Shown: piece after piece, positions 1,500 through 25,277 of the stretch
How the letters are laid out: each line of letters begins with the position of its first letter
How positions within the stretch are numbered: position 1 is the stretch's first letter
The notes under the pieces: generated by a model
The model's input: the letters and a program-made list of their open reading frames with translations, nothing else
Databases searched by the model: none
Told to the model about the DNA's origin: nothing
Origin: Parasynechococcus marenigrum WH 8102
GTDB lineage: Bacteria > Cyanobacteriota > Cyanobacteriia > PCC-6307 > Cyanobiaceae
Assembly: GCF_000195975.1 (NCBI RefSeq)
Contig: NC_005070.1
Coordinates: 2,310,001 to 2,342,000, forward strand
Direction of reading: 5' to 3'
Length of the DNA stretch: 32,000 nt
Position numbers and translations under genes: made by a program

Positions 1500-1650
1500 G
1501 CCTCAGAAATTCGACCGATGCGACGGGCAGCGCGACTTCTGTCGCGTCGGCGACAAAAAGAGGCTAAACTTTCATAGCGTTGACCCGGATCTTCCGGATG
1601 CAGTTCGTTCCGGGCCATGCAACGGGGGCCAGGACGCTGTGGAGACCTCC

Positions 1651-1827: not shown

Positions 1828-1931
1828 TTCAGAGCCCGGTCGTTTATTTCGCTGTGTTCAACGGTTATCAACTTCACAGCCCGACGTCGTGCGCGCTGAG
1901 ACGTTAAGAGCATCCTGAACACACCAGTCCC

Positions 1932-2150
1932 ATGATCAAACTCGGAGGTCGCGTGGTGGAAACCCCAATGGGATCCACCATCGATTCCATTCGCGATGGC
2001 GGCTTCTGGGTTTGCGATCGTGACCGGAACTGTCGTGAAGTGCGTGGTCTCTGGGAGGCTGAAGAATTCCTGCGCGAGCGGGAGCGGGGATTTGATTACC
2101 CCTACGCTTCCCAGTTTCAGACCATAAAGGATGTCCAGAGCAATCAGTAG
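1932..2150 (+). CDS. Hypothetical protein (72 aa)
   Basis: Track ORF with balanced, protein-like composition. The antisense ORF 1936..2187 is R/P/S-rich and looks spurious. No recognised family. Confidence 0.45.
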   Translation: MIKLGGRVVETPMGSTIDSIRDGGFWVCDRDRNCREVRGLWEAEEFLRERERGFDYPYASQFQTIKDVQSNQ

Positions 2151-2200
2151 TTCCCATCAGGCGTTGTCTCCGCTTTGATGGCGTCATTTGAGCTGTTTAG

Positions 2201-2332
2201 ATGACGCTTGGTCGCTTCCTGATTCTCTTTGCTGTGGGTGTCGTTGCTGCACTAATGCTGAAACTAACCTGGCTCTACTGGTTGCTGGGCTTAGCTGCAG
2301 TGTGGGTGGTTTTCAAACTCATCAAGGGTTGA
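2201..2332 (+). CDS. Hypothetical 43-aa two-helix membrane peptide (not in the ORF track)
   Basis: ATG 2201 to TGA 2330-2332, translated by hand: MTLGRFLILFAVGVVAALMLKLTWLYWLLGLAAVWVVFKLIKG. Two hydrophobic stretches separated by K, with a positively charged C-terminus. Confidence 0.4.
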   Translation: MTLGRFLILFAVGVVAALMLKLTWLYWLLGLAAVWVVFKLIKG

Positions 2333-2437
2333 CGTCAAATCCAAAGGCGTTGAACTCCTGACAACCACCTCTCCGGTGTGAATGGTTACCAATGACCTTG
2401 GTCGCGATGCCTATCACCAGGCAAAGCCAATCGTCTG

Positions 2438-2734
2438 ATGATCACAACGACGACCCGTCTCCGACTTCAGAACATCTGCGATCGCATCGCACAAGGCGAA
2501 TTAGTATCCCTAACCGAACGGGTTTACCTGCAGAAATTTGCAGAGCGCGACCGAAGCGTCCTCTCCTGGTTGAACCGGGCTCAACGCAAACAGCAACAAG
2601 GCGCTGTGACGGGGCTCGACAAACTGCTGATCGACATGGACCTCGGTAGTTGCGATCCAGGTGACACGCATCGCCGCGGTGATGACCTCGGCGAGTGGTT
2701 CGGCAATGCTGACCCCTGGCTCCGCCGAGATTGA
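2438..2734 (+). CDS. Hypothetical protein (98 aa)
   Basis: Track ORF with normal composition (MITTTTRLRLQNICDRIAQGELVSLTERVYLQKFAERDRSVLSWLNRAQRK...). The competing frames 2392..2649 and 2442..2795 are R/P/S-rich. Confidence 0.5.
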   Translation: MITTTTRLRLQNICDRIAQGELVSLTERVYLQKFAERDRSVLSWLNRAQRKQQQGAVTGLDKLLIDMDLGSCDPGDTHRRGDDLGEWFGNADPWLRRD

Positions 2735-2752
2735 GGTGGATCTGACCAGCAA

Positions 2753-3136
2753 TCAATCGGCATTCATCCGTTGCTGATGACGGGGCAGGGCCCACTGAAT
2801 GAAGGCCTCTTTCTTGTCACGGGAGCCTCGTCGAGCACAACCCGCCGCCACAGACTCTCTGACGGCATCGCTGAACGCACCAGCTTGTTCAAGCTCTATG
2901 TACTCGCAATGGCATTGAGCTGTCGCAAGATCAGCCATCAATTCTGCGGCTTCACCCCACATTCTCATCTCTCGTTCCATGCATAAAGCGTGGTAGCTGA
3001 TGTAATCAGGCTGCATATCAGTTTGTTGTTGTCGATCCATCGGATCAGCACCACCTTGATCCAAACCTCCTCCGTCAAAGGCAGCCGCCGATACACCCAT
3101 CAGCAGAGCGAAGCAGAACGTCCAGGGCTTCCACAT
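2753..3136 (-). CDS. Hypothetical secreted protein (signal peptide, Cys-containing)
   Basis: Internal ATG at 3136 gives MWKPWTFCFALLMGVSAAAFDGGG..., a plausible signal peptide with an A-x-A-like cleavage region. The remainder is acidic and helical with 5 Cys. Confidence 0.5.
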   Translation of the reverse strand: MWKPWTFCFALLMGVSAAAFDGGGLDQGGADPMDRQQQTDMQPDYISYHALCMEREMRMWGEAAELMADLATAQCHCEYIELEQAGAFSDAVRESVAAGCARRGSRDKKEAFIQWALPRHQQRMNAD

Positions 3137-3274
3137 CAGAACAGCATTCGATTCCGAACAAATGCTTGCCCACAAAAAATGACCAACCAAGTTTCATCGA
3201 AGAACAACAACTGGGCACTCCACTCCCCTGCGTCCATCAACGATTGAACGCATTGACGATGGATCACCAATCGT

Positions 3275-3436
3275 CTAGCTCTCGTCATTGATCAAGCGAA
3301 GAGCGGCATTCAATACGGCTTGCTTCGCCTCATTGCGCTTCATCCCCTCACGCTCGAAGTGACGAACAATGCGAGACAAGTCCCACCAAACCGCCGCTTC
3401 CACTTCATCCATTTTGTTCGCGACATGAAGCGACAT
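3275..3436 (-). CDS. Hypothetical 53-aa protein next to attL (not in the ORF track)
   Basis: Hand translation of the minus strand: MSLHVANKMDEVEAAVWWDLSRIVRHFEREGMKRNEAKQAVLNAALRLINDES, stop TAG (plus-strand cta at 3275-3277). The composition is protein-like, unlike the overlapping plus-strand ORF 3320..3523. Confidence 0.3.
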   Translation of the reverse strand: MSLHVANKMDEVEAAVWWDLSRIVRHFEREGMKRNEAKQAVLNAALRLINDES

Positions 3437-3479
3437 GGCCGACAGGCGTCTTCTCCACCTCTAGCGAACGACTGCAAAC

Positions 3480-3532
3480 GAGTGGGCGATGCTGGGATCG
3501 AACCAGCGACAATCTCCTTGTAAGGGAGGTGC
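3480..3532. repeat. attL: 53-bp direct repeat, a duplicated 3' half of tRNA-Val
   Basis: 3480-3532 matches 12680-12732 at every base when aligned by eye. Identity breaks at 3479/12679 and at 3533/12733. The sequence is the antisense of tRNA positions about 23-73 plus 3 nt. Confidence 0.95.
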
Positions 3533-3564
3533 GCTTTTCTTCAGACCCATTGGTATAGCTGAGC

Positions 3565-3606
3565 TAGAGCAAACTTACGAATTATTTAGAGCAATTTTTA
3601 GAGCAA
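3565..3606 (+). promoter_or_regulatory. Three direct TAGAGCAA copies (candidate arm-type recombinase/RDF binding sites, attL side)
   Basis: Exact TAGAGCAA at 3565-3572, 3587-3594 and 3599-3606, the last two within TTTAGAGCAA. They begin 33 bp inside attL. Confidence 0.55.
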
Positions 3607-3789
3607 AGCTGCTTTGACGGCGGTTTAGACGGTTTCGCCAGTCCAGCACTGGGAGTTCGCCCTTTTTATGCTTATTTCGTAATTCCGCAAAATATCAAAT
3701 AAGGTCACCGTAGTGACCCTATCTGCTTCGCTGAGCCACCAGTCCACCGTAAAACTGGCTGTTTTCAGTTTACTCAAAAGAGCTAAGCT

Positions 3790-3993
3790 ATGTACACCGA
3801 TAAATACCGCTTTTCAGTGCCTAAACGTCAGCTTCCTATTCAGGCTGACCTGATCATCAATCGTCTTCGTCTTGAAGCCAGTATTGAACGTCAGCGTGCA
3901 GTCTTTGAAATTGACGACGACGTGCCACATGTGCCGTCCTACGACCCACTAGCAAATCCCCAAAGCTGCCGCATAGCAACCCATGTCAGCTGA
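3790..3993 (+). CDS. Hypothetical protein (67 aa), first gene of an overlapping 4-gene operon
   Basis: Track ORF. It overlaps the next ORF by 11 nt (ATG 3983, TGA 3991-3993). No recognised family. Confidence 0.5.
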   Translation: MYTDKYRFSVPKRQLPIQADLIINRLRLEASIERQRAVFEIDDDVPHVPSYDPLANPQSCRIATHVS

Positions 3994-4393
3994 ATTTCAA
4001 TCAATCGACGAGGCCATTACTGCCTCGTACCAACCTGCATCGCAAGTCGGAACTCAAGCTCGTCAGCTTGAAGCCAGAATCGCCAAGATCGATGGCACCA
4101 AGAATCTCCTGCCAGCACGTCGTTATGGTCAACCGGTCGACATGGCAAAAATCAGGTCAAACCTCACACTTACCAGCCTTATTGCACAAGATTCCGCAGA
4201 GCTAGCTCACTTTTGCGGTATCGATCCTGCAATCCGCCACCGTATCGACGAGGAGAAGGAAGCCATAGCTATGGCAGCGCAGGCCCTGCAGATGCGTACT
4301 GAAGCTCTCCGCCAGCAGAACCAGCAGCGTCAGCAGCAGGTTCAGCAGCGTTCTCAACTCTCTCCGTGGGAGCGCGGTTACCGGAGCGTCTGA
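3983..4393 (+). CDS. Hypothetical coiled-coil protein with Q-rich C-terminus (136 aa)
   Basis: Track ORF with heptad-like helical segments and a QQNQQRQQQVQQRSQ tract. Its stop shares one base with the next ATG (TGATG at 4391-4395). Confidence 0.6.
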   Translation: MSAEFQSIDEAITASYQPASQVGTQARQLEARIAKIDGTKNLLPARRYGQPVDMAKIRSNLTLTSLIAQDSAELAHFCGIDPAIRHRIDEEKEAIAMAAQALQMRTEALRQQNQQRQQQVQQRSQLSPWERGYRSV

Positions 4394-4746
4394 TGCTTGC
4401 TCGTCCTCATCCCGCGCTGGGCTGGCTACACATCAGTCCGGCTGACACCAGACGTGTCATGGATCGTCTGCTTGCTGAGCGTGAAGCAGCTCTAGAGGTC
4501 GACCCAACCTTCAGTGGTATGCCGCAGTCGTTCATCGACTGGACCTGGCAAACATGGCTGCCGTCACACCTGCATCGCTACGAGCAGCAGGTGCAGGAAC
4601 ACCTCAGCTACCTCAACTTCAAGATCGCTGAGCTGAACGGTGATCTTGAAAAAGCTGCTGGCGGCATCCTCGACAGCCGTGATGAGGCCGTTGATCTTCG
4701 TGATCGCCTGCAGCGTGAGCTTGACGCAAGGGAGATGGCGTCATGA
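4393..4746 (+). CDS. Hypothetical protein (117 aa)
   Basis: ATG at 4393 inside the 4366..4746 track ORF, coupled to the upstream stop. Helical, charged C-terminal half (LNGDLEKAAGGILDSRDEAVDLRDRLQRELDAREMAS). Confidence 0.55.
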   Translation: MLARPHPALGWLHISPADTRRVMDRLLAEREAALEVDPTFSGMPQSFIDWTWQTWLPSHLHRYEQQVQEHLSYLNFKIAELNGDLEKAAGGILDSRDEAVDLRDRLQRELDAREMAS

Positions 4747-4813
4747 CTCTCTCAGGCCCCTAACCAACGCAATCGCCATAGATGCCCCTACTGCCAAGAC
4801 AAACACTGCTTCC

Positions 4814-5071
4814 ATGCCCGAAAACCAAGTGACAGCAACGTATTCCAATCAGCAGCTACCGCCGATACAACCGCTACCCATGACCAACATCCTTGATCAC
4901 GTGTCATCAACACCAGTCCTTGAAGTAGACGTCTGGCCTCGTTCAGTGTCACGCAAGGAATGGTTCGCCATCACCAGGCGCATCATTCAAGACACCATCG
5001 CTGACATGAACCTCGATCCTGCTGCGGAAGCAGAAGTGATCGAAGCCTTCACTGGTGCAGGGCTGCTGTGA
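4814..5071 (+). CDS. Hypothetical protein (85 aa; start uncertain)
   Basis: ATG 4814 in frame with the 4640..5071 track ORF. The upstream part of that ORF overlaps the previous gene and looks out of frame. The C-terminal part (WFAITRRIIQDTIADMNLDPAAEAEVIEAF) is protein-like. Confidence 0.45.
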   Translation: MPENQVTATYSNQQLPPIQPLPMTNILDHVSSTPVLEVDVWPRSVSRKEWFAITRRIIQDTIADMNLDPAAEAEVIEAFTGAGLL

Positions 5072-5540
5072 AAGGCCGCTGGTGACTCCTTACGCGCTAA
5101 CGGCCCTGACTGGTTCAAGCGGTGGCTGTATGGGGGCATTCAGGACCTATCTGAGCCAGCAGCGGCGCCTGCACATAACCAACTACCCAAATGGCATGCA
5201 GGGAAATCTTTAGCGGTATGTAAACCGTCAGGTCTGTTTTGGCTCAACAGCGGGAAACGTTTCAGGCAGTCACGTCTGACCCATGGCTCAAAACACCTGC
5301 ATCGCCTGCTGCTACATGCAAGGCGTAATCCACCCTAAAAGTAATCAGCTCGTGTTAAATACACTACAAGTACTTTGTCGAATTTCTAATTAGGCTGGCA
5401 TGATCCAGCTATATCTAAGTTTCAATTCACACTGCCAGCTTCTGCTCTAGATAGGTAATGCTGACAATTCGCTAAGAGACCTCTTGCGCGTAAGAGGTAA
5501 TCGCGCCACGCTAACAAGAGTATATCAGCTATGACTGCTC

Positions 5541-6386
5541 ATGACTGCTGTCTTGATTCCGCCACCAAAAATTGAATCTTTAAGTCACTTTGAAGACGTA
5601 GATTTAGTAATACTTGGTGAAGAATACGGTGACGACCTTTTCGAAGAGATTTCCAGCCTTAAATATGTTTATAATCTTGCTGGAGGAAATGACAACGTAG
5701 CCATACGATCAATTTCGGAGAGTTCAGAGCTTCATCTGAATTCCGGGTCCGGAAATGATACTATAGTATTAAATGGAGAGTTTGGAAATTGTACGATTTT
5801 AGGAGGTCAAGGAAAAGATAAAATCATTATCAATACATACGCAAGTGGCATCTCTTTAGTATCAGGCGGCGACGGCAAGGATCGCGTTATTGGCACTGGC
5901 AATATATTGGGAGGTGGAGGAAATGATATTCTCAAGGTTACGCCAGGTAACAAGGAAATCGTTTCAATTTGGGGTGGCAAAGGCAAAGACACTCTTAAAG
6001 GGGGATTTGGCAGTGATTATCTAAATGGTGGACAAAATGATGATATTATCAAAGGCAATGAAGGCCGCGATACGCTTTTCGGTGGTTCCGGTAGCGATAA
6101 ATTAACTGGGGGAATTGGAGATGACTATGTAAAAGGAGGAGCTGGAAATGACACACTTATTGGCGGTAAAGGTTCAGATATATTTGATATTGGCGAAGGA
6201 GATATAGTTAAAGATTTCAGTCCACGTGAGAATGATTTTATTTATATAGACGAGGACAAGTATGGGACAAATATAAAAGCCTCAGATACCTCTGAGGGGG
6301 TAATTCTTTCTTCTGGCACCGATCTTGAGGCGCTGATAGCAGGCGCAAGTGCTTTCGTAGTAAGAATGTATTTGAATTTTTACTGA
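5541..6386 (+). CDS. RTX (hemolysin-type Ca2+-binding nonapeptide repeat) protein, 281 aa
   Basis: At least 10 GGxGxD-type repeats, e.g. GGQGKDKII, GGDGKDRVI, GGGGNDILK, GGKGKDTLKGGFGSDYLNGGQNDDIIKGNEGRDTLFGGSGSDKLTGGIGDDYVKGGAGNDTLIGGKGSDIF. No N-terminal signal peptide. Lies in the AT-rich block. Confidence 0.85.
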   Translation: MTAVLIPPPKIESLSHFEDVDLVILGEEYGDDLFEEISSLKYVYNLAGGNDNVAIRSISESSELHLNSGSGNDTIVLNGEFGNCTILGGQGKDKIIINTYASGISLVSGGDGKDRVIGTGNILGGGGNDILKVTPGNKEIVSIWGGKGKDTLKGGFGSDYLNGGQNDDIIKGNEGRDTLFGGSGSDKLTGGIGDDYVKGGAGNDTLIGGKGSDIFDIGEGDIVKDFSPRENDFIYIDEDKYGTNIKASDTSEGVILSSGTDLEALIAGASAFVVRMYLNFY

Positions 6387-6694
6387 GTAGCATCTTCTGA
6401 ATTAACTCTGGTCGTATGCTCAGGAATAAATAATGCGTATGCTTTTAACTTGCCAACCCTTGTCTACAATTAATTCAAGTGGTGGCAAGTTAGTAGAAAA
6501 GATTTATGGCAGTTACCTTAATTCCTATAGTGGTTGCTGAGTGGAGATTATCAAGGTCAAGCTATAGTTAAATTTGGCGAACAACCCATCTTCAAAAGCA
6601 GCTGACCCAATAAATCGCCGCTATACACCACAGCAAGGACTAAGTGAGTTTGTGAATTGGTAGGCTCACTTTATATTTAAAGATGTAGATGTGG

Positions 6695-7384
6695 TTAATC
6701 ATAGGCGTTATCATCAAGATGTTGGCCAATCATTCTTCCAGTCTTTGGCGCTTTTCGGTTTGCCTGAGGTGATTTCTCGAAAACCACAATGCTGTCGTAA
6801 AAGCATATCGAAAATGTTTCTTTAGTAAAGCTGCTAATTGGAATCTGCTCCCTTGTGTGGACAGCATTCAAGTGATCAACTAATCTCTTTGCGACTTCAA
6901 TGAAGGAAGAGTTCTTTCCCAGCCCTCCCTGGTACTCTTCCCAGTAACAAGTATGAGTGTCTTCTACAATGTACACCCCATTGCTATCTAAAAAATGGTA
7001 CAGCTCATTAAATGTTTTTTCCATATGGCACATAATGTGACTACCATCGTCGATAACTATATCAATTTGTGGATATTTTTCCTTGACTGAGTCTAGCAAT
7101 TTGTTGTCGTCCTGACTGCCTATAAATATTTCTACGCCGTCGGACTCATGCTTTTTACATTCGGGATTGATGTCGATACCAATTATTTTTGCACCAGGAC
7201 CAAAATATGCTTTCCACATGTCGAGTGAGCCGCCACCATGAACACCGATCTCTAAAACGGTTGGAGACTCATTGATAAATCTATCGAGATGTTTCTCATA
7301 AATATCAAAATAATGAAGCCACTTATGCAAACGCTTCTCGGAATTGTTGACGAAGTATCGATGAAGAAAACCTTTTGCTTTCAT
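6695..7384 (-). CDS. Class I SAM-dependent methyltransferase, CmcI/'cephalosporin hydroxylase' family-like
   Basis: 229 aa. SAM motif I VLEIGVHGGGSLDMW, acidic loop IIGIDIN, and the family-typical IDIVIDDGSH segment. AT-rich codon usage, unlike the host genes. Confidence 0.75.
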   Translation of the reverse strand: MKAKGFLHRYFVNNSEKRLHKWLHYFDIYEKHLDRFINESPTVLEIGVHGGGSLDMWKAYFGPGAKIIGIDINPECKKHESDGVEIFIGSQDDNKLLDSVKEKYPQIDIVIDDGSHIMCHMEKTFNELYHFLDSNGVYIVEDTHTCYWEEYQGGLGKNSSFIEVAKRLVDHLNAVHTREQIPISSFTKETFSICFYDSIVVFEKSPQANRKAPKTGRMIGQHLDDNAYD

Positions 7385-7467
7385 TCCAGAACCAGGTGGG
7401 GATACAATTGTACACTCCTTTTAACTTTTGAGCTTTGATGCTTGGAGTACTACTCAAAACTTTTTGA

Positions 7468-7740
7468 GTGAATCTTGATTTTGTATACACAAGATATCTT
7501 TCAGATTGTGATGGGCCAAATCTTCTTCTCCTGGAAAGTCAAGCGAGAGATTTCAAACAAGGTATCTGGTCAGAAGGTAAGCAAGGTATTACGAGGCCCT
7601 GGATTTATAGGAGGGGATCCAATGCAAGACTTCGTTGTAGCGAAATCTCTTCGTGGGATAAAGCGCAATTACTTCTTCAAGAGGGTCACGTCTATCTAGA
7701 TCGCGATAATGATGGTGAAGCCTGTGAAGGACTTCGTTGA
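7468..7740 (+). pseudogene. Truncated thermonuclease (SNase-like) C-terminus fused to an Excalibur Ca-binding domain
   Basis: 90-aa frame opening with GTG. It retains only the C-terminal SNase elements (ESQARDFKQGIWSE...RPWIYRR) plus an Excalibur motif (LDRDNDGEACEGL). The N-terminal OB-fold and catalytic part are absent, and the frame begins about 80 bp from the divergent methyltransferase start. Confidence 0.5.
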
Positions 7741-7756
7741 TTACTTTTATTGAGCT

Positions 7757-8140
7757 ATGGCAAGGACTACCGCGAAAGAACGTTTAGCCCGTAGGGAACA
7801 TGCGCTGGAGTTGCTTGCTGACGGCAACAGCTTCAGAACGGTTGCGGCGCTTGTGTCGGGAAAGTACGGGGTATCTGAGAGAACAGCTCAACGGGACTTG
7901 ACTTGGGCGAGAAACAGACTGGTAGGTGAACTGAGTTCGACGGAAGTCAAAGAGCTGTTGGCATGGTTCTGCCATAGAACTCAGACCATCGTTCAGAAAG
8001 CCGAGAAAGCAGGTGCATACGGTGCTGCTGTTGCTGGCATGAACCTGATTTACCAAGCGGTGCTGTCACGCGAGCTGGACAGTATTCACAGCAACCGGCA
8101 TCGGGGATACGGCAACCGCCACGGCAACACCCTGCGCTGA
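7757..8140 (+). CDS. Hypothetical HTH DNA-binding protein (127 aa)
   Basis: N-terminal helix-turn-helix-like segment (NSFRTVAALVSGKYGVSERTAQRDLTWARNRL), a helical C-terminal half and a basic G/H/R-rich tail. GC returns to host-like here. Confidence 0.55.
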   Translation: MARTTAKERLARREHALELLADGNSFRTVAALVSGKYGVSERTAQRDLTWARNRLVGELSSTEVKELLAWFCHRTQTIVQKAEKAGAYGAAVAGMNLIYQAVLSRELDSIHSNRHRGYGNRHGNTLR

Positions 8141-8159
8141 GGCGGGAGTGGGTAGAGCC

Positions 8160-8354
8160 TTAAAAGCAGCCCTCTGTCTTCAAATCTTCGTTCACCTTCA
8201 ACAGATCCGCTGAAGCAACAGGATCAGAGACGGCATCTCTGAGGCGCTCCTGTACACGAACCTTCGCGCGGAACATGGCATCGCATCTCAGGTAATCAAC
8301 AGGAGGCGTGCAGGCGCTGAGCAGCAGCGGCAGGAGCAGGAGAAGTCGTTTCAT
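8160..8354 (-). CDS. Small lipoprotein (64 aa)
   Basis: Internal ATG at 8354 gives MKRLLLLLPLLLSAC-TPP, a classical signal peptide II with lipobox LSAC. Three further Cys in the mature part. Confidence 0.6.
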   Translation of the reverse strand: MKRLLLLLPLLLSACTPPVDYLRCDAMFRAKVRVQERLRDAVSDPVASADLLKVNEDLKTEGCF

Positions 8355-8495
8355 CCCACAGGCATAGCTACGCCGCCACTGTGCCAGTTCCATCGCGATC
8401 TCACTGGCGACCCTGACGGTGATTTTTCACCCGGCAGGTGGTGGAGCACGGCTTGGAGCATGTGCCGGAATCGGATCAAGGGCAATAAAGAGGGC

Positions 8496-8515
8496 CTGCT
8501 CTAGAAACTGCTCTA
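8496..8515 (-). promoter_or_regulatory. Pair of TAGAGCAG motifs (minus orientation) with 12-bp spacing, internal to the element
   Basis: CTGCTCTA at 8496-8503 and 8508-8515. This is the same motif and spacing as the pairs at 3587/3599 and 12567/12579. It lies between the ATPase stop (8649) and the lipoprotein start (8354). Confidence 0.45.
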
Positions 8516-8648
8516 AACAGCACAAGAGCCCACCATGACATCAGTGACAACAGGCATTTTAGGGGATTGACCACCTGCTGATGGAGTAGGTGCTCTTAAG
8601 GGAATAGGCCATCAGACGACCTCTCGCTTAGGCCAATGAGGATCGTCT

Positions 8649-9683
8649 TCACCACCGATGTACGGAACTGTGGTTAGAGGGGGTGTGCGTGACATGGGAA
8701 AAATCCCCAACGCCGTAGAGGTATTCAGGACGGCCACGCTTGCCGGTTATGCGTTGGTGACGCTGTAGCTGGCCTTGTTCAAACAGGTCAAAGCAGACCA
8801 ACCGTGCGTGTTTTGCATTGCCACCAAGAGCCGTCACCATCTCGGTGATGGACTGATAGCCGTGTTGCTCAACGTGCTGCAGAACCCTTTTGGCCAGCCT
8901 TTCTGACTCAACTGGCTTCTGTTGGTCCTGCTGCTCTGCAAGCCACCAGCTGTAAGTCTCGCTATCGCGCTCAAGAACCCATGTGGTGCCTGGCTCGATA
9001 TTCCTCTTGCCAAGGGCATGCAGTGAGAACTTGCCGTCGTTGAGGCTTGTCAAACCCCAGCCGTCTTGAACTGCAGCACTGATGGTTCCAACGCCAGAGA
9101 TGTCGTCCCACTCAATTTCTGTACACTTACGCCTGATGCCATTGCCGTCTGGCCGTCGTTTGTTGCAGTGAGCAGTCATCAACATCGACACGCCGTTGTT
9201 GACCAGGGATTTGTTGAGTCGGTACAGGACATCAACAATTTCACTGTCAACAGTGCGCTGGCCCTCACAGCACAGAACTGTGGTCAAGCTGTCGCAGCCA
9301 ATGAATCCGTACTCCTGTGACTGAATGGTCTGCAGGAGCTGTTCAAAGGGAAACGGCTCCTCCAGGTAAATGACATCGAAGTTGCGTTTCAGCTCCTGTC
9401 GCCGGAACTTGCGTTCGCTTAACTTCTCAGGCTCATCACCTTGAATCAGCAGTGCCTTGGCCTGCTGTGTTTTGAAGGCACCCAGAAAGGAATTGCCTTC
9501 TTGAACTGCCTCACAGCAGAGGTTCATCAAGGTGGTTTTGCCAGTGCCCCGATCTGCTGGGAGCACAACAATGCCGCTGGCTGCGAACTGATGAACGCGC
9601 CAGTTTTTTCCTAGGTCCTGCACACCCCCTTTTTCTGAGTCATGGATTAAGTCCTTTAGTGGCCGGTAGTCGTATTCGCTCAT
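8649..9683 (-). CDS. RecA-fold P-loop ATPase, RepA/AAA_25-like (putative replicative helicase of the element) with C-terminal winged-helix
   Basis: Walker A ADRGTGKTT, Walker B YGFIGCDSL, MLMTAHCNK sensor-like strand. C-terminal wHTH-like LQHVEQHGYQSITEMVTALGGNAKHARLVCFDLFEQGQL. ATG 9683 overlaps the upstream stop (ATGA); the track's 9692 start is a GTG. Confidence 0.7.
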   Translation of the reverse strand: MSEYDYRPLKDLIHDSEKGGVQDLGKNWRVHQFAASGIVVLPADRGTGKTTLMNLCCEAVQEGNSFLGAFKTQQAKALLIQGDEPEKLSERKFRRQELKRNFDVIYLEEPFPFEQLLQTIQSQEYGFIGCDSLTTVLCCEGQRTVDSEIVDVLYRLNKSLVNNGVSMLMTAHCNKRRPDGNGIRRKCTEIEWDDISGVGTISAAVQDGWGLTSLNDGKFSLHALGKRNIEPGTTWVLERDSETYSWWLAEQQDQQKPVESERLAKRVLQHVEQHGYQSITEMVTALGGNAKHARLVCFDLFEQGQLQRHQRITGKRGRPEYLYGVGDFSHVTHTPSNHSSVHRW

Positions 9684-10390
9684 GACAGCCACCCGTTGAG
9701 TTCAGGACAGCCGAGGTCGTTTTTACGGAAACAATCCACGTCACGGCGTTGGTACCGCAAGGTCTTGATCTTGTGCTGCACAGCGATGACATACCGCCGG
9801 TATTTGGCGTTGTGCCTGGCCGCATCAACCAACAATGGCAACAGCTCATCGCCCTTGTATTCAGCCTTGTAAATGGCTTTGAAGTAGTGGCGCAGCTCAT
9901 CAGGACTGCACAGTTCAAATTCAGGACATGCCATTGCCTCACGCCATTCAGCAATGAACTGAGGCAATAGCCGTCGCCACCTAGTACTGACGTGCCGTTT
10001 TGGTTTTGACCGTTGGCTACGGCGTTGATTTGCTGGCGGCCATGGCTTGAAAAGCGTGCAAGCGCCGGTATGGCCGCAGTTGGTGCGATGACGAAACCAC
10101 GTCTGACCACGCCACCGGAATTGATCCGACAGCGGGCTGTTGTGGCAGAACAACGTGGTGTCGTTGAAAGCGCAGTCGCCGTCTTTGACCCGATCACAAG
10201 CGCATGGGTTCTTACGCCCTGATCTGGTCAGCTTCTGCTCTAAAAAGTGACCTAGGCGCGGTTTAGTAGATCTAGACCTACTAGTCGTACCAGTTGATTT
10301 GGATGCACTAACAACCTGCCTACATAGCAGGGTGTCAGCTAGCCTTGAGGTAACACGGGCCTCATGGCTGCTCAATTTTTGGGCAGTCAT
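9680..10390 (-). CDS. Hypothetical Cys-rich protein (236 aa), no recognised family
   Basis: Track ORF packed tightly between neighbours (3-nt gap upstream, ATGA overlap downstream). Has an S/T/R-rich N-terminal linker, a Cys/His cluster (CACDRVKDGDCAFNDTTLFCHN...CGHTGAC) and a helical C-terminal domain. Confidence 0.55.
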   Translation of the reverse strand: MTAQKLSSHEARVTSRLADTLLCRQVVSASKSTGTTSRSRSTKPRLGHFLEQKLTRSGRKNPCACDRVKDGDCAFNDTTLFCHNSPLSDQFRWRGQTWFRHRTNCGHTGACTLFKPWPPANQRRSQRSKPKRHVSTRWRRLLPQFIAEWREAMACPEFELCSPDELRHYFKAIYKAEYKGDELLPLLVDAARHNAKYRRYVIAVQHKIKTLRYQRRDVDCFRKNDLGCPELNGWLS

Positions 10391-10393
10391 TTT

Positions 10394-10594
10394 TTATGCC
10401 TTTTTGATTTCGTCTTGTTCCCAACCAGGGCCGCGATCAACCTTGATGCCGTCCTGATCAGGGAAAGTTGTGGCTGCTGTCCAGCCGTAAGAATTAGTCG
10501 CCCTAGTGACAACTCCGAGCTGCCAATCAGGATCCGGTGAGATGCCTGAAGTGACGTTCAGGAAAACAACGTCACCAATGCTGTACAGAGTCAT
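10394..10594 (-). CDS. Hypothetical protein (66 aa)
   Basis: Track ORF. Its start shares one base with the upstream stop. Beta-rich composition. No recognised family. Confidence 0.5.
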   Translation of the reverse strand: MTLYSIGDVVFLNVTSGISPDPDWQLGVVTRATNSYGWTAATTFPDQDGIKVDRGPGWEQDEIKKA

Positions 10595-10821
10595 CAGACC
10601 AACTCCTTAATGAGGTGTTCTGCTGCCCGTTGCATGCGGCCACGCTTGTGCAGTTCCTTCTGGATGCGGTCAACGTCCCAGCGGATGCCGGCGTTAGAAC
10701 TGGCGCCCAAGAAATAGTGTTCCCCGCCGACTAAGAAGCCGCCATGGGTGTCTCTGAGGCTTTTTAAGTAGCTTTGACTGACTTGGAGATGCTGTGCGGC
10801 ATCTGGGGTCCGTAACAACAT
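10594..10821 (-). CDS. Excisionase-like / MerR-AlpA-type HTH DNA-binding protein (75 aa)
   Basis: Internal ATG 10821 of the 10594..10896 track ORF gives MLLRTPDAAQHLQVSQSYLKSLRDTHGG..., the usual N-terminal HTH layout of small excisionase-family proteins. It sits downstream of the integrase on the same strand. Confidence 0.55.
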   Translation of the reverse strand: MLLRTPDAAQHLQVSQSYLKSLRDTHGGFLVGGEHYFLGASSNAGIRWDVDRIQKELHKRGRMQRAAEHLIKELV

Positions 10822-11054
10822 GGGAAACGTTCTTGGCGAATTCCCATGCACTGAGCAATGACCTGCACATAGCGAGGAAACTTCGTGAAGTTCCAAAGCA
10901 TGTAGGGGTGCTTGTCCGCCACAAGGCGTCGCAAGTTGGCCTCAATTTCAGTCGCGCTGAGTTCTCCATGCGGCACTCTGATCACAACACTGTGACCATT
11001 GACGATGGATTGCTTTCCCCGAGCTTTCTGTTTGCGCGTGACCTTGCGAGTCAT
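10764..11054 (-). CDS. Hypothetical basic protein (96 aa; boundaries uncertain)
   Basis: ATG 11054 inside the 10764..11234 track ORF gives MTRKVTRKQKARGKQSIVNGHSVVIRVPHGELSATEIEANLRRLV.... The upstream 60 codons are W/C-rich and look non-coding. The 3' end overlaps the Xis-like ORF by 58 nt. Confidence 0.35.
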   Translation of the reverse strand: MTRKVTRKQKARGKQSIVNGHSVVIRVPHGELSATEIEANLRRLVADKHPYMLWNFTKFPRYVQVIAQCMGIRQERFPCCYGPQMPHSISKSVKAT

Positions 11055-11270
11055 TGGTGCATAGGAGTGGAATATCCATCCCGTTAGACGCTCAATGCGA
11101 ATCGGCCATGCTCGGGGAGAGCAGTTGTGACGGGGGTCTGGGATCAACCAGCCGTTGTCCGTCAGAGGATCGGTCAAACAATGGCGAGACCAATCTGCGG
11201 TTGTCAACCACAGCCAGCTACAGCAATGTGGCAAGCCTCGTTAAAACTTATGGCATACCACTTTTGAGTC

Positions 11271-12539
11271 TCAGTAATCAGCAGTGACCAAACCTTCGGT
11301 GTATCGCTCAACTGCCGCTTCCAGACTGGCTTCATCAACCCATTGACCATATGTCGCCATATGCACAGTGGGCGTATGACCCATAAGCGCACTTGCTTGT
11401 CGAACGTGCAAAGGATGAGTTGAGCAAACATGACAGCGCCATGCCCACGAATGCCGCAGCGAATAAATCGTGGTGTCTGGATTACTTCGCACCAAGTTTT
11501 GCCAGGGTGCGTATCGGCGAAGCAACTGCCCGTAGGCATGACCAACCTGCTTAAAGCTTTGCTTCTCCTCAACCTTAGAAATTTCGTTCAGAACCGACTG
11601 GGGCAGTTTCACCAGACCAGAGGCATAAAGCTGCAGTGCCTTCATGCCTTCACCTTCACGGCCTTCGATGTCTAGTGGCAGGCACAGCCGTGGCGGCTTT
11701 GGCTTCTGCGCCAGTGAAGCCGTGTTCCTTTTGACGGCACCGGCATAAAGCCGACCTTCTTTGACGCTCAACAGAGCCAGCTCTGCGGGCCTGAGCCCAA
11801 ACAGCGATATCAAGGCTGTCGCTAAACGCAGGTCATGACGGCCATCTGCCTCCATCTGGTCCAACAGGGCAGCAAGGTCTGGCGACTTAATTGGTGGGGT
11901 CAAACGCGCCTGCGTACTGGTGGCGGAAACACCGATCAGTTCAGCTGTGAATGACTTCTCCTGCGGCAGCCAACACTGATGGGCACCAGCCCGGTCAACG
12001 GCGTAACGCAAGAAGGCCACGATGCTTTGAATGTTGCGCCTACGGCCTTCACCGCCAGATTCCATGTCGGAGAAAAAGAGCTGCGCGTAACGCTTCAGCA
12101 AGGCTCTGGAATCACGCGGCTTGGGCTTTTGATCCAGGCACACCAGCAAGCGATTCAGACGCGTTCTGAGGTCAGACAGCGTTGAGCTGCGAAGACCTTG
12201 CTTGCCCTTCAGGTACTCCTGCACAACAGCAGACCAACCTTGTTCAGCAACGCCGCTGTGACTGGAGGGAACTGCAAGTTCTGCGGTGTCTAGACGAACA
12301 GCCTCAGCAAGGCTGAGATTGCGGCTTTCCATCAGCTGCCGCACGCGGGTGACGGCGTTCAAGATCTGCACCGAGTTGGTGGCTTTCCACTCAATAGGCA
12401 GCACCTTGGCGCTCTTGGTGCCGTCTTCATGGACACGCGTCAGCTTGGTCTTGCCGCTTTGGGCAATGAGGTTCCAACCAAAGCCGTGGTTGTCCTTGAT
12501 CTGACGCCGAAGCGTCTTTTCCCATTGCTGGGCGGGCAT
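11271..12539 (-). CDS. int: Tyrosine recombinase / phage-type integrase (422 aa)
   Basis: Catalytic signature readable in the C-terminal domain: GLRPAEL (Arg I), YSLRHSWAWR (His-x-x-Arg), LMGHT (His/Trp III) and HMATYGQW (nucleophile Tyr). It lies next to the tRNA 3' end. Confidence 0.92.
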   Translation of the reverse strand: MPAQQWEKTLRRQIKDNHGFGWNLIAQSGKTKLTRVHEDGTKSAKVLPIEWKATNSVQILNAVTRVRQLMESRNLSLAEAVRLDTAELAVPSSHSGVAEQGWSAVVQEYLKGKQGLRSSTLSDLRTRLNRLLVCLDQKPKPRDSRALLKRYAQLFFSDMESGGEGRRRNIQSIVAFLRYAVDRAGAHQCWLPQEKSFTAELIGVSATSTQARLTPPIKSPDLAALLDQMEADGRHDLRLATALISLFGLRPAELALLSVKEGRLYAGAVKRNTASLAQKPKPPRLCLPLDIEGREGEGMKALQLYASGLVKLPQSVLNEISKVEEKQSFKQVGHAYGQLLRRYAPWQNLVRSNPDTTIYSLRHSWAWRCHVCSTHPLHVRQASALMGHTPTVHMATYGQWVDEASLEAAVERYTEGLVTADY

Positions 12540-12550
12540 GGAAGCGGGGC

Positions 12551-12596
12551 TTGCTCTAAGCCGTTCTAGAGCAGTTTTTAGAGCAAAACAGCTCTA
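12551..12596. promoter_or_regulatory. Cluster of TAGAGCA[AG] motifs between the integrase start and attR (candidate arm-type sites / int promoter-operator)
   Basis: TTGCTCTA 12551-12558 (inverted), TAGAGCAG 12567-12574, TAGAGCAA 12579-12586, and a degenerate inverted copy CAGCTCTA 12589-12596. Confidence 0.5.
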
Positions 12597-12679
12597 GCAA
12601 GCCGCGGCCAGCTGTAGCCAGACAGTAAAAAAGCGGACTTGCGACCGCTCAGAAACGAGAAGTGAACTGGGTTTTTGGA

Positions 12680-12732
12680 GAGTGGGCGATGCTGGGATCG
12701 AACCAGCGACAATCTCCTTGTAAGGGAGGTGC
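12680..12732. repeat. attR: 53-bp direct repeat forming the 3' half of the intact tRNA-Val
   Basis: Matches 3480-3532 at every base. Confidence 0.95.
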
Positions 12733-12754
12733 TCTACCGCTGAGCTAATCGCCC
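12683..12754 (-). tRNA. tRNA-Val (anticodon UAC)
   Basis: Folded by hand on the minus strand: acceptor GGGCGAT/ATCGCCC, D-arm GCTC-AGCGGTA-GAGC, anticodon arm CCTCC-CTTACAA-GGAGA (one C-A mismatch at 27:43), variable TTGTC, T-arm GCTGG-TTCGATC-CCAGC, discriminator A. 72 nt, CCA not encoded. Confidence 0.9.
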
Positions 12755-12813
12755 ATTGCAGCGAATTCTGCCTCAACGCGGCAGCCTGACCACAGCCGTC
12801 ACGTCGGTTCACC

Positions 12814-13308
12814 ATGGCCTCCGGCCGGGCCCATGACCGCGCCACACTGATTGGTGGTGCACCCATCGGAATGGCTGCTGCCGTGTTGTGGGGAGCTGAC
12901 GCCGGCTTCATCGCAGCTGCGGGGTGCCTCATCGGCGGACTCTGGCTCTCTCCGGATCTCGACACCCACTCCAACGCCCTGCGGCGCTGGGGACCACTCC
13001 GTGGGCTGTGGTGGCCCTACCGACGCCTGATTCCCCACCGATCGCTCTGGTCCCACGGGCCCTTGATCGGCACAGCCCTGCGATTGATGCTGCTGCTGGG
13101 CTGGTGGGTTGTGTTGTCACTACTGATCGGTTGGCCCACAAACGCCGGGTTGCCGCAGCTGGTCAGCTGGCTGAAGCAGCAGCCTCAGCAGGCCATCGCC
13201 CTCGGAATCGGACTGGAGGCGAGTGCCTGGCTGCACCTGATCCTGGATGGAGATCCCTGGCCGGTGGAATGGTCACCGCGGCGGCTAGGGCAACGGCGGC
13301 GGCGGTGA
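12814..13308 (+). CDS. Membrane protein, DUF2227-like putative metal-binding protein
   Basis: 164 aa with several hydrophobic helices and a conserved-looking SPDLDTHS...RWG...WWPYRRLIPHRSLWSHGPLIGT segment that I recall for that family. Assigned from memory, not searched. Confidence 0.55.
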   Translation: MASGRAHDRATLIGGAPIGMAAAVLWGADAGFIAAAGCLIGGLWLSPDLDTHSNALRRWGPLRGLWWPYRRLIPHRSLWSHGPLIGTALRLMLLLGWWVVLSLLIGWPTNAGLPQLVSWLKQQPQQAIALGIGLEASAWLHLILDGDPWPVEWSPRRLGQRRRR

Positions 13309-13338
13309 GAGGGTGGGCGCGCGTCGATCCACCCCTCC

Positions 13339-14151
13339 ATGGCTCCAGACCGGCCTGATGCACTGCAGAAGCTGATCGATGTGGTGGCCCGTCTGCGGGA
13401 TCCGGATCAGGGCTGCCCCTGGGATCTGAAGCAGACCCATGCGTCTCTGGTGCCCTACGTGCTGGAAGAGGCCCATGAAGTGGCCGATGCCATTCGCCAT
13501 GGCGACGACGCCCACCTCAAGGAGGAACTGGGCGATCTGCTGCTGCAGGTGGTCCTCCATGCCCAGATCGGCCATGAGCAGGGCCGCTTTGATGTGGATG
13601 CCATCGCCAGCGCCATCAGCGACAAGCTGATTCGTCGCCATCCCCACGTCTTTGGCGGAGAGCTCCGCAGCTGGGATGCGATCAAAGCTGAAGAACAGGC
13701 CGAAGCCCTGGCTCAGTCCACCAGCCCCCTCAGCGATCGGTTGACCAGCAAGGTGCGAGGCATGCCCGCTCTGGCCGGTGCCATGGCCATCTCGAAGCAA
13801 GCCGCCAAGGCCGGCTTCGAGTGGGACGACATGGCCGGCGTTTGGGAAAAGGTGCAGGAGGAACTCGATGAACTGAAGGAGGCCATCGCCAGCGGCGATC
13901 AGGGCCATGCCCAGGAGGAACTGGGCGATCTGCTGTTCACCCTCGTGAATGTGGCGCGCTGGTGTCGCCTCGATCCCGAGGAGGGGCTGGCCGGCACCAA
14001 CCACCGCTTTCTCGATCGCTTCTCCCGAGTGGAGGCCGCCCTGGAGGGCAATCTTCAAGGCCGCAGCATTCAGGAGCTGGAAACGCTCTGGCAACAAGCC
14101 AAAGCCCAGATCAGGGCTGAGCAGGCGACAGCTCACGCCTCAGAAACGTGA
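13339..14151 (+). CDS. mazG: Nucleoside triphosphate pyrophosphohydrolase MazG
   Basis: 270 aa with two tandem MazG domains: LRDPDQGCPWDLKQTHASLVPYVLEEAHEVADAI...EELGDLLLQVV, and a second EELDELKEAI...EELGDLLFTLVNVARW. Confidence 0.92.
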   Translation: MAPDRPDALQKLIDVVARLRDPDQGCPWDLKQTHASLVPYVLEEAHEVADAIRHGDDAHLKEELGDLLLQVVLHAQIGHEQGRFDVDAIASAISDKLIRRHPHVFGGELRSWDAIKAEEQAEALAQSTSPLSDRLTSKVRGMPALAGAMAISKQAAKAGFEWDDMAGVWEKVQEELDELKEAIASGDQGHAQEELGDLLFTLVNVARWCRLDPEEGLAGTNHRFLDRFSRVEAALEGNLQGRSIQELETLWQQAKAQIRAEQATAHASET

Positions 14152-14854
14152 TCACAGCAGCCCAGGCTTGATCGGCAAGATCCGGATCCCAGCGCCAGCC
14201 GTCATCACGCATGAAGGTGTGATTGGCCTCAAACAACACGGTCTCGTGCCTCAGCCCCTGCAGGGCCTCGAGAACCCGGTCACGATCCTCAGCCGGCACA
14301 TGGGGGTCTTCGGAGCCGAACAGCGTGAACAAGGCCCCCTTGATCTCGCCGGCCCGTTGCAGCGAATCCGCAATGCCGCGGCCGAGTTTTCCGTTCTGCA
14401 ACCCGGTTGGATAAAGACAGGCGGTTGCACGCACCTCCGGTCGCATAGCGGCACGGAAGGAGAGATGACCGCCGATGCAGAAGCCAATGGCACCGAGGCG
14501 CTGCTCATCCACCTCGGTCTGCTCACTCAGCCAGGTCAAGATGGCCTTGGTATCAGCGTCGTAGGAAGCGATTTCAGTACGCCGGGCCGCGTCATTGCCC
14601 CGCAGACGACCGATCGCATCGGGCTCGATCACTGTCCCCACCGGCTCCACGCGATGGAAGATCTCCGGCGCCGCCACCACAAAGCCATACCCCGCCAGGC
14701 GATTCGCTAACCGCAGAATCGGATCACCCAGTTGGTAGATATCCGAATAAAAAATCAGGCCCGGCCAAGGGCCCTCCTGAACGGGACGGGCCAGGTGAAC
14801 CCGCATCAAGCTGTCGTCCACGGTGAGGCCGATGGTCTGTTGCTCGATCCGCAT
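14111..14854 (-). CDS. Dienelactone hydrolase family protein
   Basis: ATG 14854 (MRIEQQTIGL...) avoids overlap with arfB. Alpha/beta-hydrolase with a nucleophile-elbow-like GFCIGGH and conserved C-terminal H (FEANHTFMRD). Confidence 0.8.
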   Translation of the reverse strand: MRIEQQTIGLTVDDSLMRVHLARPVQEGPWPGLIFYSDIYQLGDPILRLANRLAGYGFVVAAPEIFHRVEPVGTVIEPDAIGRLRGNDAARRTEIASYDADTKAILTWLSEQTEVDEQRLGAIGFCIGGHLSFRAAMRPEVRATACLYPTGLQNGKLGRGIADSLQRAGEIKGALFTLFGSEDPHVPAEDRDRVLEALQGLRHETVLFEANHTFMRDDGWRWDPDLADQAWAAVITFLRRELSPAQP

Positions 14855-14867
14855 GGCCAGCGGCGCG

Positions 14868-17059
<2,192 letters not shown>

Positions 17060-17066
<7 letters not shown>

Positions 17067-17506
17067 AAGTGCCTTGCATCAGCCCGTTGTTGCCGTAATC
17101 GGGTGTGCTGTTGAGCGATCAGCTCCACCACCAAAGTGGGATGGCGATGGATCAGCGTGAGAAATCCCGAGCGGTTCAGCCGGATCAGCGCTAGAGGAGT
17201 CATCGCTTTGGCATCGCGGCTGTGGAACTGGTTAGTGGTCACCAGATCCTCATAAAAGAACAACTCACCGGAGCCGTAGCGGATGCGATTCCGTGGCCCA
17301 CAGCTGAGTTCCACCAGCCCCTGCTCAACAATATGAATGGCCTGAACTGGATCGCCACGACGGAACACAAAAGCTCCGGTGGGCAGCGTTAGGCGATCAG
17401 CTTCTGAATGCTCACCGATGAGCTCCAGAGCACTGCTCGATCGGTACAACGCTGTCAACTCGTCAATAAAGTCAAGATAAAAAACTCTTAAGGAAAACGC
17501 ATGCAA
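17060..17506 (-). CDS. Cyclic nucleotide-binding domain protein
   Basis: 148 aa with a cNMP-binding beta-barrel layout (FVFRRGDPVQAIHIVEQGLVELS...GSGELFFYEDLV). No DNA-binding domain follows. Confidence 0.7.
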
Positions 17507-17907
17507 ACGTTGTGACTGTCATCACAGTCAGCGAAGTCTTGACCAAAGCTTCACCCAGATTTAAGCAAGGGCACGGTCCAGCTCAAGCTGTTGATCCATC
17601 TCAGGGAGCTGTTCCCTCCTGATCATGGGCAACTGAGGCGATCGCGGGGTCCAGTGATGGCAGACCACCAGATCTGACACGTCCGCATGCACAGCCAAGC
17701 GACGCAAGCGACACCACCCCTCGGCTGTTCCGCCCCCCGAACAGTGCTGACAACTGCGACAGCTGGGACTGATCGTCAATAACAGCCAGCGAAGAGCGCT
17801 CAAGCTAGGGACGGTCGAAAAAATGGACCAGTCCCGGTGGCAAATCTGCGGTTTCCCTTCCAGTTGCTGAAGCACTCCATAAGAATGCTTCGGACATCCT
17901 TCCGTTC

Positions 17908-19011: not shown

Positions 19012-19048
19012 GCTGTGGGAAACTCGCCTGTCCTCGGCTGAAACTCCC

Positions 19049-20881: not shown

Positions 20882-20890
20882 GCTGAACGC

Positions 20891-21658: not shown

Positions 21659-21666
21659 GAAGAGCT

Positions 21667-22938: not shown

Positions 22939-23007
22939 ACTTGATTCGCAAGAGCCGATTCACCGTGTGGTGACTCTGGAGCTTGGGCGTTGCGCCAGGT
23001 AGTTTGA

Positions 23008-25277
<2,270 letters not shown>

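Follow-up and report, generated by a model that had tools for sequence, protein, structure and literature searches.

A probable tycheposon-type integrative element at tRNA-Val(UAC) of marine Synechococcus

Tycheposons, described in Prochlorococcus, are defined by features that include an integrase that acts at specific sites and in most cases belongs to a separate lineage, a common set of hallmark genes for mobility and replication, and cargo that is adaptive or interferes with phages (Hackl et al., bioRxiv 10.1101/2020.12.28.424599). The islands in which they reside have seven targets in Prochlorococcus (the Pro, Ser, Ala, Thr, Arg and Met tRNAs and the tmRNA), and their integrases are reported to cluster by target tRNA; a Prochlorococcus “core” integrase, YR_Pro, belongs to the same clade (Hackl et al.). 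The hallmark list comprises a DnaB/RecA-type helicase class (the hel_IRVE-DnaB profile) as well as Toprim and D5 classes, and the members include some that resemble phage-inducible chromosomal islands (PICIs), which have never been seen with extra cargo (Hackl et al.). In Synechococcus, tycheposon-like insertions are also known upstream of the phycobilisome rod region, where they adjoin tRNA-Phe(GAA) (Grebert et al. 2022, PMC8995045). Here we analyse a 32,000-nucleotide stretch of the genome of Parasynechococcus marenigrum WH 8102 (NC_005070.1, positions 2,310,001 to 2,342,000; hereafter the window), in which the segment 3533-12679, adjoining tRNA-Val(UAC), very probably represents a tycheposon-type integrative element; the host is a marine Synechococcus that resembles clade III. 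The island is a new example of a type of element already described in ocean cyanobacteria.

The boundaries of the element are sharply defined. ARAGORN identifies a single tRNA in the window, tRNA-Val(tac), and Rfam agrees with a score of 68.6 bits over the same interval (Table 1). A repeat finder returned a direct repeat of 56 nt with 98% identity (3480-3535 and 12680-12735), the first 53 nt of which are identical in the two copies, 9,200 bp apart; the right copy consists of the 3′ 51 nt of the intact tRNA-Val and 2 nt past the tRNA. The only mismatch, G at 3533 against T at 12733, falls immediately beyond the identical block on the element side, as expected if the match of attP to the tRNA ran on imperfectly. 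A 25-nt stretch taken from the repeat has only two sites in the window (chance expectation 0.00), and the G+C content is 0.38-0.58 within the element versus 0.61-0.67 to its right. The original prediction, made by reading the sequence without database searches, had named a perfect 53-bp repeat ending in the 3′ part of an intact tRNA-Val, a 422-residue tyrosine recombinase beside the tRNA 3′ end, and an Xis-like helix-turn-helix (HTH) protein and a RepA-like ATPase downstream on the integrase strand. All three hold: the repeat copies match base for base next to a tRNA found by two programs, the recombinase is supported by PHROG and by AlphaFold/Foldseek (below), with its open reading frame (ORF) starting 142 nt from the tRNA 3′ end and transcribed into the element, and the Xis-like ORF and an AAA_25 ATPase are located where proposed.

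The site is occupied in some relatives and empty in others. Exact-protein-sequence look-ups yielded many contigs, both of this population and of relatives in culture, and in three sequences the intact tRNA-Val runs straight into the left flank of the window. The contig L004, which comes from a Logan assembly of ERR5431283, corresponds to window 1865-3535 fused to 12680-23308, the 56-nt repeat forming the overlap; its flanks, 12.3 kb in total, are 99.94% (left) and 100% (right) identical to those of the window, with zero substitutions along 10.6 kb on the right. A second precise empty site is in CP047947 (L068), a closed isolate genome whose flanks are 98.2% and 99.6% identical to the window, and the contig L069 has a third at ~95.5-95.9% identity. 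An assembler mis-join across the 53-bp repeat is a possible caveat on empty contigs, one that leaves the closed CP047947 unaffected. Six isolates, LN847356 (WH8103), CP047934 (RS9915), CP047955, CP047956, CP047960 and RHLE01, are occupied at the identical junction by elements that share the window's integrase; the sizes that could be derived for these elements are 6,165, 6,280, ~8,100 and 13,352 bp. The search for empty sites in relatives, which had been put forward as the decisive check, was thus positive three times; the opposite outcome, in which all relatives would carry the same 9.2 kb unvaried, is contradicted by these sites and by differences in cargo. The distribution is patchy, as it is for tycheposons, with three empty sites, six occupied isolates and variable content.

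Because the flanks of L004 are 99.94-100% identical to those of the window, compared with differences of 1-2% among isolates, the difference between the occupied and the empty state is very recent. The simplest reading of L004 is a very recent precise excision within one population; a recent re-integration is less likely. The copy in the window has perfect repeats, its genes for the integrase, Xis and replication are intact, and it can probably still excise.

The integrase matches PHROG family 1 (integrase; E=1.5e-11). Its AlphaFold model (pLDDT 85.8) has three parts, namely a sheet of three strands plus a helix at the N terminus, a core-binding domain made of helices, and a catalytic domain; Foldseek returned XerA, full-length lambda Int and XerH with a probability of 1.00 and the best Cre chains with 0.99-1.00. 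Membership of the tyrosine recombinases was judged by the catalytic set R-K-H-R-H/W-Y; the fold and the catalytic residues are those of this class, with R249, K269, R361, H387 and Y396 invariant in an alignment of 38 integrase homologues. A profile alignment to the Tn1549 integrase places the residues on its catalytic H, R, H and Y, at a weak E-value of 0.77. Homologues number 260, all from picocyanobacteria so far as source names and a genome scan show; no relative was found in 50,697 phage records or in the IMG/VR viral contigs. Relatives adjoin tRNA-Ala(GGC) and tRNA-Arg(UCU), two published tycheposon targets, and those from Prochlorococcus, which align over the full length, lie beside tRNA-Ala(GGC). 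These similarities suggest that the window integrase is likely to belong to the tycheposon lineage.

Related integrases also occur on the other side of tRNA-Ala(GGC). In Prochlorococcus and several Cyanobium/Aphanothece genomes (L037 9780-11284 and L044 5318-6773, both from Prochlorococcus; also L024 and L028), a related integrase lies 5′ of this tRNA and faces away from it, and so lies outside any insertion in the tRNA 3′ part. They may represent the “core gene” integrase of Hackl et al. L044 carries in addition a 2.8-kb repeat-bounded remnant on the opposite side of tRNA-Ala(GGC).

The closest integrases, those of L013, L014 and L050 (73-75% identical), target tRNA-Ala(GGC). In L013 (1217-17920; Synechococcus AG-670-B23) two tandem elements of 8,559 and 8,070 bp lie behind this tRNA, separated by 45-nt partial tRNA copies, and the second of them holds the closest species-level relative of the window integrase (75%) together with a homologous distal module. 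The contig L016 contains an 8,888-bp element at tRNA-Arg that is bounded by a 59-nt repeat of this tRNA and has the same whole layout.

Comparison with the Prochlorococcus tycheposons shows extensive agreement. In both, integration is in the 3′ part of a tRNA and leaves a partial tRNA copy; an inward tyrosine recombinase at the tRNA-proximal end is followed by an Xis gene, a small replication module and cargo (here the Xis-like protein, a 236-residue protein and the AAA_25 ATPase follow the integrase on one strand); elements are patchy among close strains and can form tandem arrays, as in L013; and the integrase is far from the common phage types, with homologous integrases and Xis-like genes present in Prochlorococcus. 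In contrast to the Prochlorococcus elements, the host is a marine Synechococcus and the target is tRNA-Val(UAC), tRNA choice differs (Val and Ala) among integrases that are 73-75% identical, the AAA_25 helicase is paired for replication with a protein that has a zinc-binding domain only, and a conserved four-gene distal module is present. The insertions at tRNA-Phe(GAA) (PMC8995045) share with the window element the genus, the tRNA anchor, a tyrosine recombinase, a tRNA remnant and strain-variable content. They differ from it in tRNA and locus and in the position of the recombinase, which is at the tRNA-far end there and beside the intact tRNA-Val here, and it is for the window element that precise empty sites and both ends are documented.

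The element is enriched in a heptamer. TAGAGCA occurs 12 times in the window versus 2.2 expected, a count reached in 0 of 100 shuffles, and 11 of the 12 sites lie in or at the element; three pairs have a spacing of 12 nt (3587/3599, 8497/8509 and 12567/12579). TAGAGCA with the same spacing is found beside the integrase genes of L013, L014 and L050, and L013 has a pair at its distal end too. In the next integrase clade (L015, L016 and L017; 50-53% identical) the pairs are of TGCGCCAA, whether the target is Ala, Arg or Val, and in L016 the arm pair is found near both ends of the element. With either motif the pairs are always 12 nt apart. Since the arm motif tracks the integrase clade and not the tRNA target, which varies within each clade (Val/Ala in one, Ala/Arg/Val in the other), the TAGAGCA repeats in both arms are probably arm-type sites, candidates for recognition by the integrase N-terminal domain. 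They could instead be operators for a co-evolving HTH protein. Arm-site and core (tRNA) specificities seem to evolve separately, which suggests how the integrases of this element family change target: the family would be a natural series in which arm recognition (TAGAGCA or TGCGCCAA) is kept as core specificity moves among tRNA-Val, tRNA-Ala and tRNA-Arg. If true, this series would make the determinants of att-site choice directly testable.

The contig L002 (1216-4660; L008 is the same in reverse) combines features of two sites. Next to tRNA-Val it has an integrase, Xis gene and replication half of the window type; on the opposite side it runs up to an intact tRNA-Ala(GGC), which it meets at the tRNA 3′ end and which lies beside lexA. 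Three copies of TGCGCCAA replace the three TAGAGCA sites, and the partial tRNA-Val is absent. L039 shares this junction of tRNA-Ala, arm and distal module. L002 is either a recombinant of elements resident at two tRNAs or an assembly chimera.

Gene frames in the element were checked against the related loci (Table 1). The Xis-like protein gave 25 tblastn matches, many of them adjoining related integrases; matches of 43-48% lie in three Prochlorococcus loci with related integrases, one of them just downstream of the L037 integrase. Its match to the PHROG excisionase is faint (E=0.079). The 236-residue protein shows 85% identity to its L014 and L050 counterparts at the protein level against 73-75% at the DNA level, and because protein identity exceeds DNA identity we regard this ORF as a real gene. 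The Cys and His residues at its centre are invariant, and a profile search of 1.84 billion representative proteins identified 88 relatives, most of which stand alone with ~200 residues. In the relative P0228 the same type of domain is N-terminal to D5_N alone, and in P0248 to Toprim (a weak match), D5_N and DUF5906. Because these remote homologues are fused to Toprim, D5_N and DUF5906, the protein can be linked to the zinc-binding domain of primase-helicases, and it appears to be a relative of this domain without a catalytic primase domain of its own. Its structure model was of unusably low confidence (pLDDT 39.8), and PDB sequence searches with this protein, the AAA_25 ATPase and the 156-residue ORF gave no match; the 156-residue ORF matched no family.

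The AAA_25 ATPase is 57% identical to the L014 and L050 copies, which themselves match AAA_25, and is of the same class as the hel_IRVE-DnaB profile in the tycheposon hallmark list. Its nearest phage match is a weak one, to the RecA-family ATPase of cyanophage S-CBS4. Together the AAA_25 ATPase and the zinc-binding protein plausibly form a small replication module. The 77-residue putative lipoprotein next to this region has a faint match to a PHROG spanin (E=0.027).

Table 1. Features of the element at tRNA-Val(UAC), in window coordinates (aa, amino acids)
Feature	Position	Strand	Basis or remark
attL, displaced partial tRNA-Val copy (3′ 51 nt + 2 nt)	3480-3532	-	Identical to 12680-12732; merges with the tRNA copy in empty-site loci
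Distal (P) arm, three TAGAGCA(A/T) sites, last two 12 nt apart	3565-3607	+	Motif scan
Conserved distal module, four small genes	3790-5071	+	Kept in elements targeting other tRNAs
Distal module gene, 67 aa	3790-3993	+	
Distal module gene, 136 aa	3983-4393	+	
Distal module gene, ~95 aa	4459-4746	+	
Distal module gene, ~85 aa	4814-5071	+	
Cargo: RTX calcium-binding repeat protein, 281 aa	5541-6386	+	PF00353, E=2e-17; G+C ~0.40
Cargo: class I S-adenosylmethionine (SAM)-dependent methyltransferase, 229 aa	6695-7384	-	Weak Methyltransf_31/24 matches
Cargo remnant: Excalibur (C-terminal) part of a gene for an SNase-Excalibur nuclease	7468-7740	+	PF05901, E=3.6e-6
Conserved HTH protein, 127 aa, probably a regulator	7757-8140	+	Weak HTH_23/HTH_11 matches
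Putative lipoprotein, 77 aa	8160-8393	-	Signal peptide with lipobox LLSAC, read from sequence
Third TAGAGCA pair, 12-nt spacing, intergenic	8496-8515	-	Stretch also kept in WH8103 and L013
RecA-fold AAA_25 ATPase, taken as replicative helicase (RepA/DnaB-like)	8649-9692	-	PF13481, E=1.8e-11
Cys/His-rich protein, 236 aa	9680-10390	-	Kin to N-terminal zinc-binding domain of primase-helicases
ORF, 66 aa	10394-10594	-	Called as gene in all near-identical contigs; no family match
Xis/AlpA-like HTH protein, probable start 10821	10594-10896	-	tblastn relatives beside related integrases
Conserved ORF between integrase and Xis genes, 156 aa	10764-11234	-	49-74% aa identity in L013, L014, L050
Integrase, three-domain tyrosine recombinase of lambda Int type, 422 aa	11271-12539	-	PHROG, fold, invariant residues
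Integrase-proximal (P′) arm, TAGAGCA at 12552(-), 12567(+), 12579(+)	12552-12650	both	Motif scan
Terminator of rebuilt tRNA, in P′ arm	12631-12650	-	
attR core (12680-12732) inside intact tRNA-Val(UAC) (12682-12754)	12680-12754	-	ARAGORN, repeat finder, Rfam

The half of the element distal to the tRNA consists of conserved genes around a variable centre. Relatives of the four-gene distal module are found in L013 (70-75% identity at the protein level), L016 (34-41%) and L002 (83% at the DNA level), and the module has no Pfam, PHROG or PADLOC match above threshold. The 127-residue HTH protein is 95-98% identical in L002 and most isolate variants, is apparently missing in WH8103, and shows 33-36% protein identity in L013 and L014; it has no match in the phage records, and a homologue search gave close homologues only. 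Between the distal module and this gene lies an exchangeable slot for low-G+C cargo (5541-7740 in the window). In the window it holds the RTX protein, the methyltransferase and the nuclease remnant; in RS9915 and RHLE01 the RTX protein alone, a gene that is absent from the other variants; in L002 and CP047955 an intact SNase-Excalibur nuclease (218 residues in L002, in the same place as the remnant) and a neighbour gene (237 residues in L002, 224 in CP047955); and in WH8103 a Crp-type regulator, the methyltransferase (96% DNA identity; absent from RS9915) and genes without assigned function. A PADLOC scan of the cargo for defence systems found only a generic methyltransferase resemblance. The original prediction had called the cargo unrecognisable, which does not apply to the RTX-repeat protein, the SAM-dependent methyltransferase and the SNase/Excalibur remnant.

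Several observations weigh against placing the element among the tycheposons or regarding it as mobile. The target tRNA-Val(UAC) is not one of the seven island tRNAs, a list that describes Prochlorococcus and stands outside the formal definition. The lineage placement rests on 33-38% identity to Prochlorococcus integrases, which may be the “core” YR_Pro. The integrase has zero Pfam/NCBIfam matches even at E<=10, PF00589 included, and its HxxR box reads Y358-S-L-R361 (Y-S-L-R-H) in all 38 aligned members, with Tyr358 in place of the second catalytic His. As the other catalytic residues are invariant and the fold is of the lambda Int type, we judge the catalytic set intact and Tyr358 a family-wide variant and no lesion; inactivating changes in the catalytic residues, raised earlier as a finding that would speak against a mobile element, are not seen in this alignment. 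A further group of observations concerns age. The element is 97-99% identical to its isolate counterparts and the flanks ~99%, so that its divergence is flank-like; attL is decayed by 2-5 mismatches to the tRNA in CP047955, CP047956 and RS9915; the replication genes are deleted in RHLE01 and CP047956; and the circular attP junction, another check proposed at the outset, failed to appear, exact and relaxed patterns giving no match in IMG/VR viral or JGI metagenome contigs, of which the JGI contigs also lack the left-flank pattern; as the collections scanned do not hold this population, the negative is uninformative. An exact look-up of the 136-residue distal protein, made for a contig with the circular junction, returned integrated copies in five of five contigs.

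Because of the flank-like divergence, the decayed attL copies and the lost replication genes, the element family looks as if it has long resided at the tRNA-Val site and has mostly been inherited vertically, with some copies decaying and some probably immobile. These same points, with the identical junction in six isolates and the missing attP junction, would suit a fixed, decaying island, in which an ancient integration was inherited vertically and is immobile, the empty sites either never having been occupied or being assembly collapses over the 53-bp repeat. We consider such an island an unlikely account of the window copy, whose repeats are perfect and whose integrase, Xis and replication genes are intact: L004 is empty although its flanks are nearly identical to the window over 12.3 kb while isolates differ by 1-2%, one empty site is in a closed genome and so is not a repeat collapse, and the cargo differs among strains. 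The element had been called recent from its perfect repeat and intact integrase; this is right for the difference between the occupied and the empty state and does not extend to the family, which looks old and vertically inherited at this site. The tRNA-Val of CP047956 (L058 19308-19360) has two T-arm differences from the window (GATACTGG...CCAGTGAC) that look compensatory; the partial tRNA copy of this isolate differs from the window copy elsewhere, and its two copies differ at four positions.

A speculative reading, to which we give little weight, takes the element for a vesicle-borne replicon or a minimalist satellite of cyanophages; the unmatched four-gene distal module and the 127-residue HTH protein would then encode its transfer functions. 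Still less probable is a true phage satellite, PICI-like or resembling the phage-inducible chromosomal minimalist islands (PICMIs), induced by a helper cyanophage and packaged in its capsids, with the 127-residue HTH protein or the distal module redirecting packaging. The element is similar in size to these satellites, integrates at a fixed site as they do, and has their layout of an integrase, an AlpA/Xis-like gene and a replication module of the primase-helicase type; PICI-like members do exist among tycheposons; the 127-residue protein, with an N-terminal HTH followed by helices, is like small terminase subunits, in resemblance only. However, no ORF matched a capsid, terminase, packaging or interference family in Pfam, PHROGs, NCBIfam or PADLOC, similarity to the 50,697 phage records is confined to the weak RecA-family ATPase match, neither the integrase nor the attP junction is found in IMG/VR viral contigs, and the element carries cargo, which PICI-like tycheposons have never been seen to do (Hackl et al.). 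The resemblance to tycheposons and PICI-like satellites proposed by the original prediction therefore stands for the former, which fit in organisation and relatives, and is not supported for the latter, whose packaging and interference genes were not found. A defective prophage or an integrative mobilisable or conjugative element is scarcely credible, even though the source record annotates the integrase as a “phage integrase family protein” and AAA_25 ATPases occur in conjugative and mobilisable elements, as 9.2 kb is too small for either kind, the integrase has no relative in any phage record, and scans of the element ORFs against Pfam, NCBIfam and PHROG gave no match to families of phage structural or lysis proteins, relaxases or type IV secretion. 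The prophage, conjugative-element and PICI readings were rejected on these family scans, which found no capsid, terminase, interference, relaxase or secretion gene.

For the tycheposon-type element, the following mechanism can be proposed. The element would carry its own copy of the tRNA-Val(UAC) 3′ 51 nt, which the integrase would recombine with the gene in the chromosome, the crossover most likely lying in the anticodon stem-loop. Integration would rebuild the tRNA from element DNA, including its terminator, and the 53-bp copy that is displaced would come to lie at the far end. Arm-type binding would probably take place at the TAGAGCA repeats of the two arms, and the small HTH protein encoded downstream of the integrase gene is a likely excision directionality factor. 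The excised circle would then probably be replicated by the AAA_25 RecA-fold helicase and the 236-residue zinc-binding protein, and the slot between the distal module and the 127-residue HTH gene accepts exchangeable low-G+C cargo. Of this picture, the data show the boundaries, the recombinase fold and its residues, the precise empty sites and the exchange of cargo, while the position of the crossover, the parts played by the repeats, Xis and the replication proteins, and the way from cell to cell are inferred. This scheme resembles that of lambda Int and other heterobivalent recombinases, which similarly have an N-terminal β sheet, core-binding and catalytic domains, short motifs in both attP arms and a small accessory HTH protein. 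In contrast to lambda Int, to which it is 12-14% identical in structural alignments, the window integrase lacks a PF00589 match and has Tyr for the HxxR His, and the arm sites are predicted from sequence.

Marine Synechococcus is a major primary producer, and gene gain and loss in its genomic islands are only partly understood. The tRNA-Val locus provides a clean, fully bounded case, in which one site is empty or holds at least five cargo sets in near-identical strains and isolates. Because the site is empty or variably occupied in cultured isolates, WH8103, whose repeats are perfect, RS9915 and the empty-site strain CP047947 offer a ready system for studying tycheposon-type excision, replication and transfer outside Prochlorococcus.

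The DNA to the left of attL (1900-3479) has a G+C content of 0.52-0.58 and only small ORFs without family match, and the segment 2154-2408 is unaligned between the window and five isolate genomes and continuous in CP047956. This region has the look of island DNA left next to the tRNA at an earlier time, in keeping with the tycheposon model, which predicts such remains; a search with repeat pieces found no older tRNA-Val remnants in the left flank. Farther left are core genes for Fur (50-454) and a metallo-beta-lactamase-fold protein (451-1188), a high-light-inducible protein gene (1269-1499, PF00504) and, just after it and upstream of small ORFs, a Glutamine-II riboswitch aptamer (1575-1634, plus strand; RF01704, 48.2 bits versus a gathering score of 33). 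To the right of the element, an 84-nt direct repeat with 70% identity (13459-13542 and 13852-13935) lies inside a MazG gene (13339-14151) and reflects the two tandem MazG domains of the protein, not a mobile-element feature.

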